The position numbers and the translations under genes were made by a program. Positions 32,838-39,975 of a DNA stretch of 64,000 bases are shown piece by piece. Under the pieces are notes generated by a model. It searched no databases, had not been told where the DNA came from, and saw only the letters and a list, made by a program, of their open reading frames with translations. Source of the stretch: Enterobacteria phage XTG1; sequence record KT184316.1, one strand, 5' to 3'. Within the stretch, counting starts at the first letter, position 1. Each line of letters opens with the position of its first letter.

Positions 32838-33108
32838 AGAAAAGTGGGAGATTTTACCATTAGTCAGTGAAGGAGGTAATGGTTGTGAAATGTACATGAT
32901 ACGTGGTCATGTTCCAGAGCCAATTGCACTTGAGATGGTAAACAACTTTACAGATGGTTCTTACAAAGACTTAGGCGAACCAACTGTCAAGCAACAATGG
33001 GTTAAACCTGTACCAGACAGCACAGGTAACTGTAGTGTACTTTATCACGTTGTAGACCCTGCAAAATGCAAATCTGCAATGGCAGTAACAAACGTAACTT
33101 TTGATTGA
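32830..33108 (+). CDS. Hypothetical protein
   Basis: 92-aa ORF, overlaps both neighbours. Confidence 0.4.
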   Translation: MAREKWEILPLVSEGGNGCEMYMIRGHVPEPIALEMVNNFTDGSYKDLGEPTVKQQWVKPVPDSTGNCSVLYHVVDPAKCKSAMAVTNVTFD

Positions 33109-34001
33109 GAGAGAAAACTATGAAAACATCTATCCGTGTTACAGTTCATTCACCAACTAAAGGAACTCATGAAGAAGAGTTTAACATCATCCAATTTCCT
33201 TCTGGTGAGATTGGTGGACACTTTTCGCCAGAGTTTGTTGATTTCACTGCTTATGCAGCATCATCCATCAACAATGTGATTATGATTGTAAAAGGTTATG
33301 ATAAGGATACATTGTTTGCTGTGGCACTTGCTAAAGAAGCAATTGATGATTTAATTCCTCATGATTATGCTTTAAAGACTGTCATCTTTTACTACTTACC
33401 AAATGCACGTTATGACCGTCACATGTTTAAAGGCGACGCAGCAGCTTTAAAGGTTTTTGCTAAACAGATTAATGCAATGGGGTTTGGCGCAGTCTGTGCA
33501 GTTGACCCTCACAGCTATGTACCAGATAACCTGTTTAACTGCTTCCAGAGTATTCCTCAAAAGGAGATTGCAGTCCACTATGCAAATGACCCTCTAATTG
33601 ATTACTTAGTAGCCCCAGATGCAGGTGCTTCTAAGAAGATTGCAGAGACTGCTAAAGAGGTGGATAAACCATATATCACAATGTCTAAGGTGCGAAATCT
33701 TAAGACTGGAGAAATCACTGGTATGCGAATCCTTGACGATGTTGATTTGACAGATAAAACTGTCATGATTCTGGATGATATTTGTGATGGAGGTCGAACC
33801 TTCATAGAAGCAGCTAAACATCTTCGTGAAGCAGGTGCAAAACGTGTTGAGCTTTATGTAACACATGGTATCTTCTCTAAAGGTGTTGAAAACCTTCTTG
33901 ACAATGGTATCGACCATATTTACACTACAAACTCTTTAGGCGAAGCTAAAGACCGTGGCTTAACACATTATGGTCAAGTTACTGTAGCAAACCTTGATTG
34001 A
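33105..34001 (+). CDS. Ribose-phosphate pyrophosphokinase (PRPP synthetase)-like protein; candidate ADP-ribose pyrophosphokinase of a NARP1-type NAD+ reconstitution pathway
   Basis: VAPDAGASKK and VMILDDICDGGRTFIEAAKHLREAGAKRVELYVTHGIFS match Prs signatures; immediately upstream of a Nampt-like gene. Confidence 0.75.
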   Translation: MREKTMKTSIRVTVHSPTKGTHEEEFNIIQFPSGEIGGHFSPEFVDFTAYAASSINNVIMIVKGYDKDTLFAVALAKEAIDDLIPHDYALKTVIFYYLPNARYDRHMFKGDAAALKVFAKQINAMGFGAVCAVDPHSYVPDNLFNCFQSIPQKEIAVHYANDPLIDYLVAPDAGASKKIAETAKEVDKPYITMSKVRNLKTGEITGMRILDDVDLTDKTVMILDDICDGGRTFIEAAKHLREAGAKRVELYVTHGIFSKGVENLLDNGIDHIYTTNSLGEAKDRGLTHYGQVTVANLD

Positions 34002-34010
34002 AAGTTTATA

Positions 34011-34032
34011 GGGGCTTGAAAGCCCCATTTTG
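34011..34032 (+). terminator. Terminator-like hairpin
   Basis: ggggctt-gaa-agcccc then ATTTTG. Confidence 0.4.
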
Positions 34033-34046
34033 AGAGAGATTAAAAG

Positions 34047-35828
34047 ATGACTAAATCACTTTATGCAGTACCAGCAGGTTTAAACGCAGATGCTTACAAA
34101 TCTGGTCATGTTTACCAGTACCCTAGTGCAACAGAATATTTGATGTTCAACCTGACACCACGTAGCGACAAATGGTTTAACAGTCCATTAGCAATTGATG
34201 GTGTAGTCGCTTTTGGTATTCAACGTTTTGTTAAAGATTACTTGATAGACCACTGGAACGCTACGTTCTTTGAACGTGACAAAAAAGAAGCAATTGACGA
34301 AATCTTAGAAGTCATGAATGGTGTTCTGGGCAAAGATGCTATCGGTCGAGAGCATTGGGAAGCACTCCACGATTTAGGTTATCTACCAGTTGAAGTATAT
34401 GCTGTAGAAGAAGGTACAGTTGTCCCGATGCGTGTCCCAATGATTGTCTTCCAGAACACTGTTTCAGGCTTCCATTGGGTAGCAGGTTATCTGGAAGATG
34501 CTTTCTCTGCTGAGATTTGGAAGGCTTGCACCATTGCGACTATTGCATTGCACTACAAACGCATCTGTAAGAAGTGGGCTGACCTTACTTGTGACAATGA
34601 CTTACATTTACCTTATCAGTGCCATGATTTTGCTATGCGTGGTATGTCCGGCTTTACTGATGACGCATTTAACGCTGTAGGTCACTTAACCAGCTTTAAA
34701 GGGACTGATAGCTTCCCTGCTGTATACACGGCTAAACGAATCTATGGACAGTCCTACCCAATCTCTGATATTGGTAGTTCTGTACCAGCCACTGAGCACT
34801 CTGTAATGTGTGCAAACATTGCTTGGGAAGGTGGTAATGAGTTGATTGAAGAAGAAAGACGCTTTAAAGGTGAGTTACAAACCTTCCGTCGTTTCTTAAC
34901 AGAAACTTACCCAACAGGTATTGCAAGCATTGTTTCAGATACTTATAACTTCTGGAGAACTGTGTCAGAAATCTTACCAGCACTTCGTAAAGAAATTATG
35001 GAACGTGATGGCAAACTGGTAATTCGCCCTGACTCTGGAGACCCTGTACATATTGTCACAGGTTATAAAGCAATCCACTTAGAATGTGCTAAGAAGGCTT
35101 ATTACGAGCACCTAAGCAAGCTGGAAGCCAGTGACACAATGTTGAATGCTGTTCTGAACATGAAGCTTGAGAACATCAACTATGGTATTGCTGGATGGCT
35201 ACTGTCAGAAGGCTACGAGATGGTTGTTGACAGAGAAGACTTTGAAGTTGCTGATACAGTGATGTTGAAAAATGCTTATATGGTTGGTTCTGCAAACGTT
35301 GTAACACGTCCTGTAGCTGAGATTGATGGAGCTATTAAGACACTGTACAACATCTTTGGGGGAACTATTAACTCTAAAGGTTTTAAAGTACTGGATGAGC
35401 ATATTGGACTTATTTATGGCGACTCTATCACGTTGGAACGTGCAAATGAAATACTGAAGCGTTTGTATGAAATGGGTTTTGCAAGCTCTAACGTAGTGTT
35501 TGGTGTAGGTTCTTACACTTACCAGTACATGACTCGTGACACCTTTGCATTTGCTGTCAAAGCAACTCTTGCAAGCATTGGTGGTAAAGAGATTATGCTT
35601 GCAAAAGACCCTAAAACAGATAGTGGTGTTAAGAAGTCTGCTTTTGGTGGTGTAGCACCTATGTGGGATGGTGAAAATCTGAAAGCTGTAGATGGCTATG
35701 GGTTCCAGAGCTTTGCAGATGCACTTGAACATCCAGCTTGTGCTTTACGTCTAGTCTTTAGCGACTCTGAGCAGTTCGGCTACACAACTCTTGGTGATAT
35801 TCGAAATAATATTGACAAGCAGCTTTAA
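34047..35828 (+). CDS. Nicotinamide phosphoribosyltransferase (Nampt)-like protein; candidate nicotinamide ADP-ribose transferase
   Basis: 593 aa; called from overall resemblance of the translation to Nampt/NadV family proteins and from genomic pairing with the Prs-like gene; not alignment-verified. Confidence 0.7.
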   Translation: MTKSLYAVPAGLNADAYKSGHVYQYPSATEYLMFNLTPRSDKWFNSPLAIDGVVAFGIQRFVKDYLIDHWNATFFERDKKEAIDEILEVMNGVLGKDAIGREHWEALHDLGYLPVEVYAVEEGTVVPMRVPMIVFQNTVSGFHWVAGYLEDAFSAEIWKACTIATIALHYKRICKKWADLTCDNDLHLPYQCHDFAMRGMSGFTDDAFNAVGHLTSFKGTDSFPAVYTAKRIYGQSYPISDIGSSVPATEHSVMCANIAWEGGNELIEEERRFKGELQTFRRFLTETYPTGIASIVSDTYNFWRTVSEILPALRKEIMERDGKLVIRPDSGDPVHIVTGYKAIHLECAKKAYYEHLSKLEASDTMLNAVLNMKLENINYGIAGWLLSEGYEMVVDREDFEVADTVMLKNAYMVGSANVVTRPVAEIDGAIKTLYNIFGGTINSKGFKVLDEHIGLIYGDSITLERANEILKRLYEMGFASSNVVFGVGSYTYQYMTRDTFAFAVKATLASIGGKEIMLAKDPKTDSGVKKSAFGGVAPMWDGENLKAVDGYGFQSFADALEHPACALRLVFSDSEQFGYTTLGDIRNNIDKQL

Positions 35829-35842
35829 AAGTATATGATAAG

Positions 35843-35866
35843 AGGCTCCTACGGGAGCCTTTTTAA
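35843..35866 (+). terminator. Intrinsic terminator
   Basis: aggctcc-tacg-ggagcct + TTTTT. Confidence 0.6.
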
Positions 35867-35881
35867 TTTCTGGAGAAGATT

Positions 35882-36217
35882 ATGAAAATCAAAGAGATGA
35901 ACATCAACATCGTCTTAGAGGAACGTTGGGAGAACATCAAGAAACCTGAAAATGGTCATAAGTTCCTTAACAAAATTTTAGTAGCAGCTAAAGAAGAACT
36001 GACTGGTAAGATTGCAGCAGCAATCACAATAAAGGTCTGTGTAAAAGGTCTTCCAGACAATCACCAATTTGCACTTGACGAGTTTAAAGAAAGCTTCTAC
36101 AATCCAAATAAACAGATGCTTGAAAGTAACTTTGCAGTATCTACAAGTATCGTTCATGACAGAAGCTTTATCCTTTACAAAAACATGAGAGGTGAGTCAT
36201 GCAAGCATATTGGATAG
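35882..36217 (+). CDS. Hypothetical protein
   Basis: 111-aa ORF. Confidence 0.4.
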   Translation: MKIKEMNINIVLEERWENIKKPENGHKFLNKILVAAKEELTGKIAAAITIKVCVKGLPDNHQFALDEFKESFYNPNKQMLESNFAVSTSIVHDRSFILYKNMRGESCKHIG

Positions 36218-36375
36218 AAATTTTACTGTCACTTGGTAGTGTAGCAATATTTGTTTGCCTTCTTTGTAAGTACTTTGCAGAACACAAAAAGTGTGACTAC
36301 TGTAACGGAGAAGGGTATACAAGAGCAGGTTGTTGCCCTATTTGTGGTGGTTCTGGTAAAATGTTTAATAAGTAA
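36199..36375 (+). CDS. Small membrane protein with zinc ribbon (58 aa)
   Basis: MQAYWIEILLSLGSVAIFVCLL… TM helix then CDYCNGEG…CCPICGG; below the track's size cutoff, overlaps upstream ORF end. Confidence 0.3.
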   Translation: MQAYWIEILLSLGSVAIFVCLLCKYFAEHKKCDYCNGEGYTRAGCCPICGGSGKMFNK

Positions 36376-36403
36376 TTTAACAGTAAACTAAGAGGAAAGT
36401 ATT

Positions 36404-38770
36404 ATGCGCATGGTAAACGACCACGCAGAAGTGATTAAGAGTTCAACTTCTTTAGAGACGTCTCAAGCACAGATTACAATGACACCTGAGATGTTCAGCC
36501 TTTTGAGTTCTGGTGTATATACCTTTAAAGAAAGGGCAGTGATTCGTGAACTGTCATGTAACGCAGTAGATGCTCAGAAAGAAGCTGGAAAAGAGAACAT
36601 CCCATTCCATGTGCATTTACCTACTCGTTTTGAGCCTTACTTCGAAGTTCGTGATTTTGGAACTGGATTGACTCATGATAAAGTTATGAGTTTGTACCTA
36701 AACTATGGAGCTTCTACGAAGAATGACTCTAATGACTACATTGGTGCAATGGGTATCGGCTCAAAGTCACCATTTGCAATTGCTCAGTCATTCACAGTAT
36801 CGAGCTATGTTGATGGTGTTGTTAATAAGTACTCTGTTTATCTTGAGAATGGTATCCCTCAAGTAACTAAGCTGACAACTAACCCAACAAAAGAACCTAA
36901 TGGTTTAGCTGTACGTGTGGCAGTTGCTGACCACCGTATCTCAAAGTTCTTTGAAGAAGCTGGGAATGTGTACTCATACTTCACTGTAAAACCAGAAAGT
37001 AATATTGAGTACGACGATGTATTAGCAGATATGAACGTCATTGCTCGTGAAGAAGGTGTTTATGATGCCATGATTCATAAGCAAAGCTGGCGTTCTAGTG
37101 GTAACAAGACAGAGTTTAATGTGGTGATGGGTAACATTGCCTACCCTGTTAATATGGAAGCATTACTTGGCGATGATTTCTTCAAAGTATTGCCAGAATT
37201 TTTCCGTAGGAGTGTAGACCTTGTAAACATCTACATGCCTATTGGTTCAGTTGCTATTGCAGCTTCTCGTGAAGCATTACAGATGAATGACACGACAAAA
37301 AATGTTATCATTGAGGCTACTAAAAAGATAACTGAAGCCATTACAAAGGATGTTATCAAGAAAGTTAATAGCCAACCTACACTCATGGATGCTGCACAGG
37401 CTTATGCTGAGTTACGTTTGAACTCACGAGAGATGTTTAATGCTGTGTGTCCAAAGCTAGAGTGGGGAGGCGTTAAGCTTGATTCTCTGGAAGAAGAATT
37501 GCTAAACATTCGTCGTGGGATTATCTACGCAGAAGACGGCTCAGTCATTTATGAACGTGACGGTAAAGGTAATATTAAGGTTGATAGGAACGGAAACAAC
37601 ATCCCTAAAGTAGATTACCTTTATGACCCAGTTGCTTATGTCAAGTTCAACTCTTTAGAGAGTAAGATTCGTGCAACAGCACTTTCCTACACTCAAGAGG
37701 CAAGTATGTTCAATATCTTTGGTGCAATGCGTAAAAGCCAAATTGAACAGTTTTTGTTCGTGATTAATGACCGTCGCAATAAAAACGGTACTGAGAAGAC
37801 TGTAGGACGAAATCAAATCTTGCGTGGTGCATGTCGAGACTACGCTAACGAGTCAGGCCTGTTCCACAGATACAATGGTATTGTGTTTGTATTCTCTAAT
37901 GAGAAAGAGTTAGATGATTTAATCAATCTGCACAAACTTGATAAAAGCTTGTTAAAGATTGTGAAAATGTCTGATAAGGAGCACCATTATCAGCGTAAAG
38001 AAGCTGTGAGGGGCGTTGTAAAACTCTGGAAAGCTGTTCCAGCAGAAGCTGTAGCTTCATACAAAGAGGTATCAGAAGACCTAGACACAATTGAAGAGCC
38101 TCAGCTTTATATTAAGGCAGTAGGCGACACAGTTGATGGTAGATGTTTTTGCTCATCTCCAGAAGATGTAGCTAAGTCAGTTGCTAATGTTACAGGTAAG
38201 ACAGTCTATGTTTTCCGAAAAGCAAATTGGAAAAAGATACCAGAAGATTGGATTGAAGTAGATGAGAAACTCTTGAACGACAGCTTAACTGATGTTCACT
38301 GGATTAACCATAACAGATATATGACGCGTATCTATATGAATGGTGTCCTTGACCTTACAAGCAGTTGGATTATTGCCAGAAACTTTACGTTTAATAACAG
38401 GAAGATTTCTCGCGGGTATTGTTATTCAAGGGATACTATTAAGACAATCTTCTTAGAAGGGAATGAAGATGCTGTTGAGGCAATGTTTGGTAAGATTCAG
38501 TATGTGGCTGCACCGTTTGCATACACTTACACTATCAGTGTTCTTCAGGATTTGAAGTCATGCCTTGATAATGACACAAAACTGTACAAAAAGATTAAGA
38601 AAGCAGGCGACCGCATGGTTATCAAGCTGACAAACTATCTTTCAAAAAGAAAACAAGAAAACTTCTTGCTTTCACACTTAGATTGGAATAAAGTATCACC
38701 TATCGAAGTGAGTAAGTTTTTAGGCTTTGATGTGAAGTGTGTTCCAGAAGGGACTACAATTTACGATTAA
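36404..38770 (+). CDS. rIIA: rIIA-like protein with N-terminal GHKL-type ATPase domain
   Basis: 788 aa; N-box-like RELSCNAVDAQ, G1 box VRDFGTGL, G2 box GAMGIGSKSPF; followed by an rIIB-sized gene. Confidence 0.55.
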   Translation: MRMVNDHAEVIKSSTSLETSQAQITMTPEMFSLLSSGVYTFKERAVIRELSCNAVDAQKEAGKENIPFHVHLPTRFEPYFEVRDFGTGLTHDKVMSLYLNYGASTKNDSNDYIGAMGIGSKSPFAIAQSFTVSSYVDGVVNKYSVYLENGIPQVTKLTTNPTKEPNGLAVRVAVADHRISKFFEEAGNVYSYFTVKPESNIEYDDVLADMNVIAREEGVYDAMIHKQSWRSSGNKTEFNVVMGNIAYPVNMEALLGDDFFKVLPEFFRRSVDLVNIYMPIGSVAIAASREALQMNDTTKNVIIEATKKITEAITKDVIKKVNSQPTLMDAAQAYAELRLNSREMFNAVCPKLEWGGVKLDSLEEELLNIRRGIIYAEDGSVIYERDGKGNIKVDRNGNNIPKVDYLYDPVAYVKFNSLESKIRATALSYTQEASMFNIFGAMRKSQIEQFLFVINDRRNKNGTEKTVGRNQILRGACRDYANESGLFHRYNGIVFVFSNEKELDDLINLHKLDKSLLKIVKMSDKEHHYQRKEAVRGVVKLWKAVPAEAVASYKEVSEDLDTIEEPQLYIKAVGDTVDGRCFCSSPEDVAKSVANVTGKTVYVFRKANWKKIPEDWIEVDEKLLNDSLTDVHWINHNRYMTRIYMNGVLDLTSSWIIARNFTFNNRKISRGYCYSRDTIKTIFLEGNEDAVEAMFGKIQYVAAPFAYTYTISVLQDLKSCLDNDTKLYKKIKKAGDRMVIKLTNYLSKRKQENFLLSHLDWNKVSPIEVSKFLGFDVKCVPEGTTIYD

Positions 38771-38775
38771 AGTGT

Positions 38776-38805
38776 TTGACAAGGGGCTTCAAAGCCCCTT
38801 AGAAT
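38776..38805 (+). promoter_or_regulatory. Promoter TTGACA-N17/18-TAGAAT with a GC hairpin filling the spacer
   Basis: TTGACA 38776-38781; hairpin aggggcttcaaagcccct in the spacer; TAGAAT 38800-38805. Confidence 0.5.
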
Positions 38806-38849
38806 AGCCTCACAAATTGATTGATTAACTAACAAGAGAGAGTAATAAG

Positions 38850-39959
38850 ATGACTACTAAAACTAAAGCACAGATTGACGCAGAAATTTACAAACTGGTT
38901 AAAGAAGGTAAGCTGACCAAAACAGCTATTGCACAGAAATTTAACACTTCAACCCGTTCAGTTGGTCGTGCTGTAGAGCGTCATGAAGCAACCTTAAAAG
39001 GGAAGAAGAAGGTGACTTCTACACCAGCTACGAAGACTTTGAAGCAAGTTGCTAAGACTTTTAAAAAGAAAGCTGGCAAACCAGTTGAAAAGGTCGTTAA
39101 AGACACTGTACAGAAAGCTCCAGTAAATAAACTGCACGAAGCTATGCAGAAAGATGACAAGATTGAGTACATGATTACTGGTGATTCTGTAATTATGACT
39201 TATGGTTCAGAATCTGAAATTGTTGAGTCTACTCATCCGAACTATCAAGAGATTGTAGTTCATGTTGTGAAAGGTGAGTTCAAGAAAGCATTTGAACTGA
39301 TGAACATTCGTAAGTCTATCGAAAACTTCACTCAGGGTGCTATCACAATCAAAGGTGACAAGCTATTCTACGGTGCTGTTGAGATGCGTTCTACTCTGGT
39401 TGACCGTATCCTCCACATGATGAAGACTGGTGATAAAGGTTTTGAACGACTTGTAATGTTCTTCGAAAAACTGATGGAAAACCCATCTAAAGATTCTGTA
39501 GAACAACTTTGGGGATTCGTATCTCACCTTGATGTTGAAATTGATGAAGAAGGTTACATCATTGGTTGGAAGAAAGTCTCTACTCGTGAAGGCAAGTTGG
39601 TTGACTCCCACACCTACAAAGTACCTAATGATTTGGGTAACATTGTAGAAATGCCACGTTGGATGGTTGATAACAACCGTAACGTAACTTGCTCTCAGGG
39701 TCTTCATGTTGGTGCTTGGGATTATGTTCGTTGCTTCTCAGGTGATACAATCCTGAAGGTTCGTGTCCATCCACGAGATGTTGTATCTGTTCCGACTGAT
39801 TACAACGATATGAAGATGCGTTCATCCCGTTATGAAGTTGTAGCAATCGTTGATAATCAGCGTAAAGTGCTGAAAGCGTGGGATGGTAAGACTGAAGCTT
39901 TGCATGTCATCGTTGGCACTGCTGGTGAACTCATCTCTCAACGTAAACGTGAAATCTAA
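38850..39959 (+). CDS. rIIB: rIIB-like protein (by position and size)
   Basis: 369 aa immediately downstream of the rIIA-like gene; Lys-rich N-terminal region; no independent motif recognised. Confidence 0.4.
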   Translation: MTTKTKAQIDAEIYKLVKEGKLTKTAIAQKFNTSTRSVGRAVERHEATLKGKKKVTSTPATKTLKQVAKTFKKKAGKPVEKVVKDTVQKAPVNKLHEAMQKDDKIEYMITGDSVIMTYGSESEIVESTHPNYQEIVVHVVKGEFKKAFELMNIRKSIENFTQGAITIKGDKLFYGAVEMRSTLVDRILHMMKTGDKGFERLVMFFEKLMENPSKDSVEQLWGFVSHLDVEIDEEGYIIGWKKVSTREGKLVDSHTYKVPNDLGNIVEMPRWMVDNNRNVTCSQGLHVGAWDYVRCFSGDTILKVRVHPRDVVSVPTDYNDMKMRSSRYEVVAIVDNQRKVLKAWDGKTEALHVIVGTAGELISQRKREI

Positions 39960-39975
39960 TAAGTAATTTCTTAAA

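Follow-up and report, generated by a model that had tools for sequence, protein, structure and literature searches.

In phage T4, rIIA and rIIB are adjacent, non-essential genes that counter the exclusion system RexAB. Their counterparts in Felix O1 are genes 1 and 2, and they have been annotated since 2010, when the genome paper on Felix O1 set the start of the sequence at the rIIA homologue and numbered it gene 1 (PMC3185647). More recently, orthologues from two related phages were shown to counter defence systems. One of them is the Felixounavirus Bas63 (JohannRWettstein), in which the genes for RIIA and RIIB (gp84/gp85) are g84 and g85; deletion of either one caused a 1e4-1e5 drop in efficiency of plating (EOP) on hosts carrying QatABCD, and complementation restored plating (preprint 10.1101/2024.10.10.617714). 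In SUSP1, another member of the Ounavirinae, knockdown of rIIA or rIIB lowered EOP only on hosts with lambda RexAB, the rIIB guide 4 reducing plating from ~1e10 to 5e6 (PMC11879866). The orthologues are thus dispensable on naive hosts and become conditionally required in the presence of RexAB or QatABCD (PMC11879866; preprint 10.1101/2024.10.10.617714). Here we analyse the corresponding locus in a 64,000-nucleotide (nt) stretch of Enterobacteria phage XTG1 (KT184316.1), referred to below as the window, in which a gene for a 788-amino-acid (aa) protein is followed by one for a 369-aa protein and preceded by a 58-aa open reading frame (ORF).

We assign a probability of about 0.9 to the reading that this is the rII counter-defence locus of a Felixounavirus, i.e. 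of a Felix O1-like myophage of Escherichia coli and Salmonella. The rIIA/rIIB pair is already known and annotated, and near-identical copies have been tested experimentally in sister phages: the window proteins are 98% and 83% identical to RIIA and RIIB of Bas63, and 63% and 80% identical to those of SUSP1. As Felix O1-like rII genes have long been annotated and their orthologues recently shown to counter QatABCD and RexAB, the locus itself adds little. Modestly useful are the structural confirmation of the conserved part of RIIA as an ATPase module of the Hsp90/MORC/MutL-like GHKL plus transducer type, the evidence that RIIB has a conserved C-terminal domain without a solved relative, and the record of two further elements, a 58-aa membrane zinc-finger gene that always adjoins rIIA and a conserved promoter-embedded hairpin. 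All three ORFs of a preliminary description of this DNA, made from its sequence, are present as it gave them, and the central features of the locus are as follows.

36199..36375, + strand: 58-aa ORF, one transmembrane (TM) segment and two CxxCxGxG repeats
36404..38770, + strand: rIIA, 788 aa, GHKL ATPase with transducer-like module, and C-terminal region
38776..38805, + strand: composite promoter and stem-loop in the rIIA-rIIB spacer
38850..39959, + strand: rIIB, 369 aa, helix-turn-helix (HTH), linker and alpha/beta C-terminal domain

Membership of the two large proteins in the rIIA and rIIB families is supported in four independent ways, namely PHROG profiles, BLASTP alignment to T4, predicted structures and the GenBank annotation of near-identical phages. 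The profile search, which had been named beforehand as the test that could refute the assignment, was strongly positive: RIIA matched phrog_612 (E 3.3e-189; aa 1-770 on profile positions 1-716 of 725) and RIIB matched phrog_609 (E 1.7e-89). In BLASTP, aa 24-317 of RIIA aligned with positions 22-307 of T4 RIIA (32% identity, E 2e-36) and aa 11-339 of RIIB with positions 13-312 of T4 RIIB, across the entire T4 protein (37% identity, E 1e-61). Homology with T4 therefore spans the N-terminal ~300 aa of RIIA and the full length of RIIB, whereas the C-terminal ~470 aa of RIIA gave no pairwise BLASTP alignment to the T4 protein. The gene order is that of T4 too, rIIB beginning 79 nt 3' of rIIA on the same strand. 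With regard to annotation, Escherichia phage fjerdesal matches the segment 36100-40100 from end to end at 97.9% identity, and 210 phage records cover 80% or more of this segment, nearly all of them from Felixounavirus phages of E. coli, Salmonella and Shigella; many near-identical GenBank records label the two large genes rIIA and rIIB, and the window is a Felixounavirus genome. The conserved N-terminal part of RIIA is far more widespread and was found by tblastn in 2,925 phage records.

The three GHKL ATPase motifs that had been claimed for the 788-aa protein could all be located: the N-box E49-x3-N53-x2-D56 (nt 36548-36571), the G1 box D84-x-G86-x-G88 (nt 36653-36667) and the G2 box G114-x2-G117-x-G119 (nt 36743-36760). 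Their residues are invariant, and G88 nearly so, in an alignment of 50 homologues with identities down to 21%; the conserved set includes E49, N53 and D84, the predicted catalytic residues for ATP binding and hydrolysis. A profile built from these homologues matched the N-terminal ATPase domain of TRAP1/Hsp90 in the PDB (E 7e-6), pairing IRELSCNAVDA with IRELISNGSDA and VRDYGTGL with IQDTGVGM; a single-sequence search of the PDB with RIIA found nothing. Weaker NCBIfam matches to HSP90 and sacsin point the same way. PF13589 is recorded on many RIIA homologues; the query itself falls below the filters of that family and has no Pfam-A match at E<=0.1, which is not evidence against membership. When the AlphaFold2 (AF2) model (predicted local distance difference test score, pLDDT, 85.7) was compared with known structures, the matches were, with score and length of match in brackets, TRAP1 (18.0; 311), MORC2 (17.4; 267), MORC3 (16.8; 256), Topo VI-B (16.6; 304), SMCHD1 (16.5; 266) and MutL (14.9; 247), histidine-kinase CA domains scoring only about 6. 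As modelled, therefore, aa ~28-325 (nt 36485-37378) form a GHKL ATPase of the Hsp90/MORC/MutL type with a transducer-like second domain, and aa 326-788 are a lineage-specific C-terminal region. This agrees with a published account in which RIIA combines a GHKL ATPase at its N terminus with a C-terminal domain that varies (PMC7824862). The likeness to Hsp90/TRAP1, MORC, Topo VI-B and MutL is one of fold, at only 10-14% identity: RIIA lacks the client-binding and C-terminal dimerization domains of Hsp90, the CW and coiled-coil domains of MORC and the endonuclease domain of MutL, its C-terminal 460 aa being family-specific instead. With no hydrophobic segment of TM grade (maximum Kyte-Doolittle 19-mer mean 1.29, against 2.32 in the 58-aa protein), it is a predicted soluble protein. 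PADLOC gave only a weak GHKL-type match to TmtA and nothing pointing to a defence system.

RIIB appears in its AF2 model (pLDDT 85.5) as a protein of three parts. An N-terminal three-helix HTH resembling sigma region 4 (aa 6-51, nt 38865-39002) is joined by a Lys-rich, disordered linker (aa 52-93; pLDDT <50 over aa 55-90) to a conserved alpha/beta C-terminal domain (aa 94-369, nt 39129-39956). The linker is longer than in T4, and aa 49-100 hold 15 Lys/Arg residues against three Asp/Glu. All BFVD fold matches were to RIIB proteins (E down to 1.5e-41), and PF26926 is recorded on the 98%-identical cluster P0001 and on nearly every RIIB homologue listed; our own Pfam-A search gave only weak HTH matches with a Pfam copy lacking PF26926, which again is not evidence against membership. 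The residues invariant among 51 sequences are F204, N211, G235, K241, G263, R270, V273, C281, G284, L285, H286, P308 and V312. Searches of the PDB returned noise with the single sequence and no usable match with a profile; the conserved C-terminal domain is family-specific, without a solved relative. No TM segment was detected (maximum 19-mer mean 0.69, compared with 2.32 in the 58-aa protein), so that RIIB, too, is predicted to be soluble. The 3' half of rIIB (39000-39959) is a hot spot of divergence, with 59-88% nt identity to Bas63, whereas identity is 93-99% in the flanking DNA, which takes in rIIA and the gene that follows rIIB. RIIB of T-even phages triggers a bacterial gasdermin/CARD system (PMC10312443), and diversifying selection, with RIIB as a target of sensing by some defence systems, could account for the divergence.

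By way of these orthologues, an anti-defence function of the window pair can be taken as established. The protection against Rex-type abortive infection that had been ascribed to it has been demonstrated for the orthologous Ounavirinae pair in SUSP1. As to mechanism, RIIA and RIIB would form a single ATP-driven complex, a proposal supported by the existence of natural RIIA-RIIB fusion proteins: the phrog_609 profile (1055 positions) is matched by RIIA at 31-299 and by RIIB at 755-1048, and RB43 has a 1049-aa 'RIIA-RIIB' protein. The GHKL domain would undergo ATP-dependent N-terminal dimerization, as in Hsp90, MutL and MORC, and the complex would work early in infection, at the inner membrane or close to it, preventing or neutralizing the defence-triggered collapse of membrane potential that would otherwise abort the infection. 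Of this scheme, the analysis shows the fold, the conservation of the catalytic residues and the existence of fusions; action at the membrane is inferred from the literature on T4 and Rex. Several points weigh against this picture of the locus. We found no report of ATPase activity for any RIIA, and the molecular mechanism of rII has gone unexplained for ~70 years (PMC11879866; PMC7824862). The HTH of RIIB points to contacts with DNA or RNA polymerase rather than to action at the membrane. In SUSP1, the rIIA guides produced only a modest EOP drop on RexAB (PMC11879866, supplementary file 23), and rIIA was scored 'Semi-Fit' even without Rex (PMC11879866), so that it may have a second role. All functional evidence comes from orthologues and none from this exact phage, and the promoters and terminators discussed below are consensus matches backed by conservation, not mapped transcript ends.

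The 58-aa ORF is a genuine gene, with a strong Shine-Dalgarno sequence (GAGAGGTGAG) and a full-length match to phrog_3931 (E 3e-32), and it was found by tblastn in 262 phage records. It lies directly 5' of rIIA in four genera of the Ounavirinae (Felixounavirus, Suspvirus, Mooglevirus and Kolesnikvirus, the copy in the last having been missed by tblastn and recognized by eye). Only 5-19 codons are identical to those of the other genera, and the four zinc-ligand Cys residues and the Gly residues are among what is retained; an alignment of eight sequences likewise keeps the Cys/Gly pattern while most other residues have changed. The product has one strongly hydrophobic segment (aa 5-23, nt 36211-36267; Kyte-Doolittle 19-mer mean 2.32), then a basic juxtamembrane stretch, then two CxxCxGxG motifs at aa 32-39 and 46-53 (nt 36292-36357), the zinc-finger repeat of DnaJ. 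Because the positive residues follow the TM helix, the positive-inside rule predicts that the zinc centre is cytoplasmic. The TM segment and the overlap with the preceding gene were thus correctly recognized at the outset, whereas 'CxxC-CxxC' was too loose a motif for what are two CxxCxGxG repeats. In phage KhF3 the gene is annotated as 'putative membrane protein'.

The likeness to the central zinc finger of DnaJ consists in these two exact repeats, which suffice for one tetrahedral zinc centre; DnaJ, by contrast, has four repeats, and the 58-aa protein has no J domain and is fused to a single TM helix. Judged by four repeats and a score above the Pfam gathering threshold, it is not a member of PF00684 (DnaJ_CXXCXGXG), scoring 13.6 bits against a cut-off of 32.7 (E 0.08). 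The family is a narrow one: a set of 5.8 billion proteins yielded only close relatives, and an exhaustive search of 1.84 billion representatives gave 22 matches, mostly generic CxxCxGxG repeat proteins, with about five full-length clusters. The only similar protein outside the Ounavirinae is that of Krischvirus FL04 (RB49-like; L006 2495-2653), where a 52-aa protein with a TM segment and two CxxCxGxG repeats is encoded directly after a glutaredoxin gene, unlinked to rII, which hints that mini zinc-finger membrane proteins move independently of rII. T4 rIIA.1, the small gene upstream of rIIA in that phage, was considered as a counterpart and rejected; its product has neither a TM segment nor Cys residues and is unrelated.

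Of the other explanations for the locus, the least implausible, although still unlikely, sees RIIB mainly as a transcription factor that negatively regulates the phage genes and whose anti-defence effect would be indirect, through altered expression, with RIIA as its ATP-dependent partner. Such a role for RIIB was proposed in a comparative analysis of jumbo phages (PMC7824862) and would accord with the weak Pfam match of RIIB to HTH_Tnp_ISL3 (E 1.4e-3), the presence of several HTH Pfam families on some homologues (P0058, P0063, P0067), the basic linker and the lack of TM segments in either protein. However, every invariant or nearly invariant position falls in the C-terminal part (F204...Y328) and none in the HTH, the alignment of many homologues is confined to the C-terminal 55-65% of RIIB, and no DNA target is known. 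Expression of RIIB alone triggers gasdermin/CARD and is toxic (PMC10312443), which fits a direct cellular effect without proving one. It is very improbable that the two proteins are literal lysis inhibitors, engaged in lysis inhibition of the T4 type or in lysis timing rather than in anti-defence. Their PHROG and RefSeq product names do read 'RIIA/RIIB lysis inhibitor', and the plaques from which T4 rII mutants historically took their r (rapid lysis) designation count in the same direction; true lysis inhibition in T4, however, depends on rI, rIII and the holin t, and the rapid lysis of rII mutants is host- and prophage-dependent. The T4 RefSeq note itself attributes the rII phenotype to specific prophage effects. 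Moreover, knockdown or deletion of rIIA or rIIB has little or no effect on hosts without defence systems (PMC11879866; preprint 10.1101/2024.10.10.617714).

A third proposal would extend the rII system rather than reinterpret it, and we consider it doubtful: the 58-aa protein could be a dedicated third subunit of Ounavirinae rII, a membrane tether or adaptor that places soluble RIIA-RIIB at the inner membrane and is co-translated from the same early transcript. If true, this would open a way to study why rII proteins associate with the membrane, which has long gone unexplained. The ORF keeps its place directly 5' of rIIA in all four genera, including where the identity of RIIA has dropped to 36%; the two genes seem to be co-transcribed, since a scan found no terminator-like site and no consensus-grade promoter match between them; and the 58-aa protein supplies the TM segment that RIIA and RIIB lack, with its predicted zinc finger on the same, cytoplasmic side. 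Yet synteny within one subfamily may be simple inheritance, and the 111-aa ORF and the NAD-salvage genes further upstream are equally syntenic with rIIA. T4 and most of the ~2,900 rIIA-bearing phage records lack the ORF, and its likeness in Krischvirus FL04 adjoins glutaredoxin, not rII. In the PhageMaP screen of Bas63, g84 and g85 were named as QatABCD counters and g83, which corresponds to the 58-aa ORF, was not (preprint 10.1101/2024.10.10.617714), and the SUSP1 orthologue, agp080, was 'Not Fit', i.e. dispensable in the laboratory (PMC11879866, supplementary file 16). We regard the 58-aa ORF as an accessory gene, not a demonstrated part of the rII mechanism.

In the spacer between rIIA and rIIB, 38776-38805 reads TTGACA-18-TAGAAT and agrees with the consensus promoter at 11 of 12 positions. 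The 18-nt spacer is taken up wholly by a hairpin, AGGGGCTT-CA-AAGCCCCT (stem 38782-38789/38792-38799), with a folding energy of -11.6 kcal/mol for the spacer alone and -14.2 kcal/mol in a 45-nt context, where z is only -2.2; by itself the energy says little, and it is conservation that marks the element as real. The hexamers and the stem are conserved in Felixounavirus, Suspvirus and Mooglevirus, the last two with the stem GGGGCT/AGCCCC, while the loop varies. The promoter of its own that had been proposed for rIIB, with a hairpin in its spacer, is thus present and conserved, but the most distant relative, Erwinia phage Hena2, keeps the hairpin alone (GGGCTG-GAAA-CAGCCC at the same site, without recognizable hexamers). 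Because the hairpin persists there by itself, 38782-38799 probably acts in its own right, at the RNA level or in termination. The composite element would probably attenuate the rIIA transcript or stabilize its 3' end and, in addition, give rIIB an independent promoter; rIIB would be fed both by read-through from rIIA and from this sigma-70-type promoter. T4 rIIB, too, has a promoter of its own, the middle promoter PrIIB, besides read-through; the window phage differs from T4 in using plain sigma-70-type promoters.

The closest described elements are the promoter-early stem-loops (PeSLs) of the T4-like phages RB49 and phi1 (PMC2839356; PMC4122927). In common with PeSLs, as defined in PMC2839356, the element is a strong sigma-70-like promoter whose -35 and -10 boxes enclose a stem-loop made of a G-tract and a C-tract, and it lies in a short intergenic spacer that ends in a Shine-Dalgarno sequence and ATG. 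PeSLs, however, are a repeated family that flanks ORFans in hyperplastic regions and mediates recombination, whereas here a single copy, the sole promoter-embedded hairpin within the 64 kb, stands between two conserved genes. The element is PeSL-like and not a PeSL family member, the idea that it is one of many copies being rejected on this count. Also rejected was its candidacy as a recombination junction behind the unequal identities of RIIA (98%) and RIIB (83%) to Bas63, as the divergence lies at 39000-39959, within rIIB.

Around these genes, the scan and the profile searches delimited the unit with four further features.

35812..35839, + strand: sigma-70-like promoter, TTGACA-16-TATGAT, consensus scan 11/12, overlapping the end of the nicotinamide phosphoribosyltransferase (NAMPT) gene
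35840..35863, + strand: intrinsic-terminator-like hairpin GGCTCC-TACG-GGAGCC with T run, ending the upstream NAD-salvage genes and abutting the promoter
35882..36217, + strand: 111-aa ORF, phrog_4262, first gene of the unit, overlapping the 58-aa ORF by 19 nt
39973..39996, + strand: intrinsic terminator ending the rII unit, annotated as a terminator in phage KhF3

The promoter at 35812-35839 is the likely start, as judged from its consensus match, of a unit comprising the 111-aa ORF, the 58-aa ORF and rIIA. As a small correction to the preliminary description, the 111-aa ORF belongs to the transcription unit as well, and the order appears to be promoter, 111-aa ORF, 58-aa ORF, rIIA, hairpin/promoter, rIIB and terminator. 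The 111-aa ORF matches phrog_4262 over its full length (E 2e-68) and was found in 257 phage records, each with at least 80% coverage; its 19-nt overlap with the start of the 58-aa ORF is always kept, which suggests translational coupling. In Bas63 it corresponds to bas63_0082; its SUSP1 orthologue, agp079, was 'Not Fit', i.e. not required in the laboratory (PMC11879866, supplementary file 16).

The promoter stops exactly where the terminator hairpin starts, so that transcripts would begin within or just past the hairpin, in a compact terminator/promoter junction between two counter-defence units. Directly 5' of the rII unit (33105-35828) lie genes for a phosphoribosyl pyrophosphate (PRPP) synthetase-like protein and NAMPT, which correspond to g79 and g80 of Bas63; these counter Sir2-HerA and, more weakly, retron Ec86 via NAD+ regeneration (preprint 10.1101/2024.10.10.617714). 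As such genes adjoin the rII unit, the region constitutes a cluster of counter-defence genes. Bas63 shares the order PRPP synthetase, NAMPT, 111-aa ORF, 58-aa membrane ORF, rIIA, rIIB, SLT-like ORF and polynucleotide kinase; it differs in having one further small gene that separates NAMPT from the 111-aa ORF and otherwise only in alleles, the 3' half of rIIB being notably more diverged than its surroundings. The last two of these genes (40060-41281), 3' of the rII terminator, overlap each other by 23 nt and encode, respectively, a 182-aa protein that has a signal peptide and weakly matches SLT lytic transglycosylases (Pfam E 5.6e-4; phrog_600) and a 231-aa protein of the polynucleotide-kinase family (phrog_3970, E 6e-135). 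At the end of the window, tRNA genes (Pro-TGG, Glu-TTC, Met-CAT) are clustered at 63474-63803, in keeping with a Felix O1-like phage.

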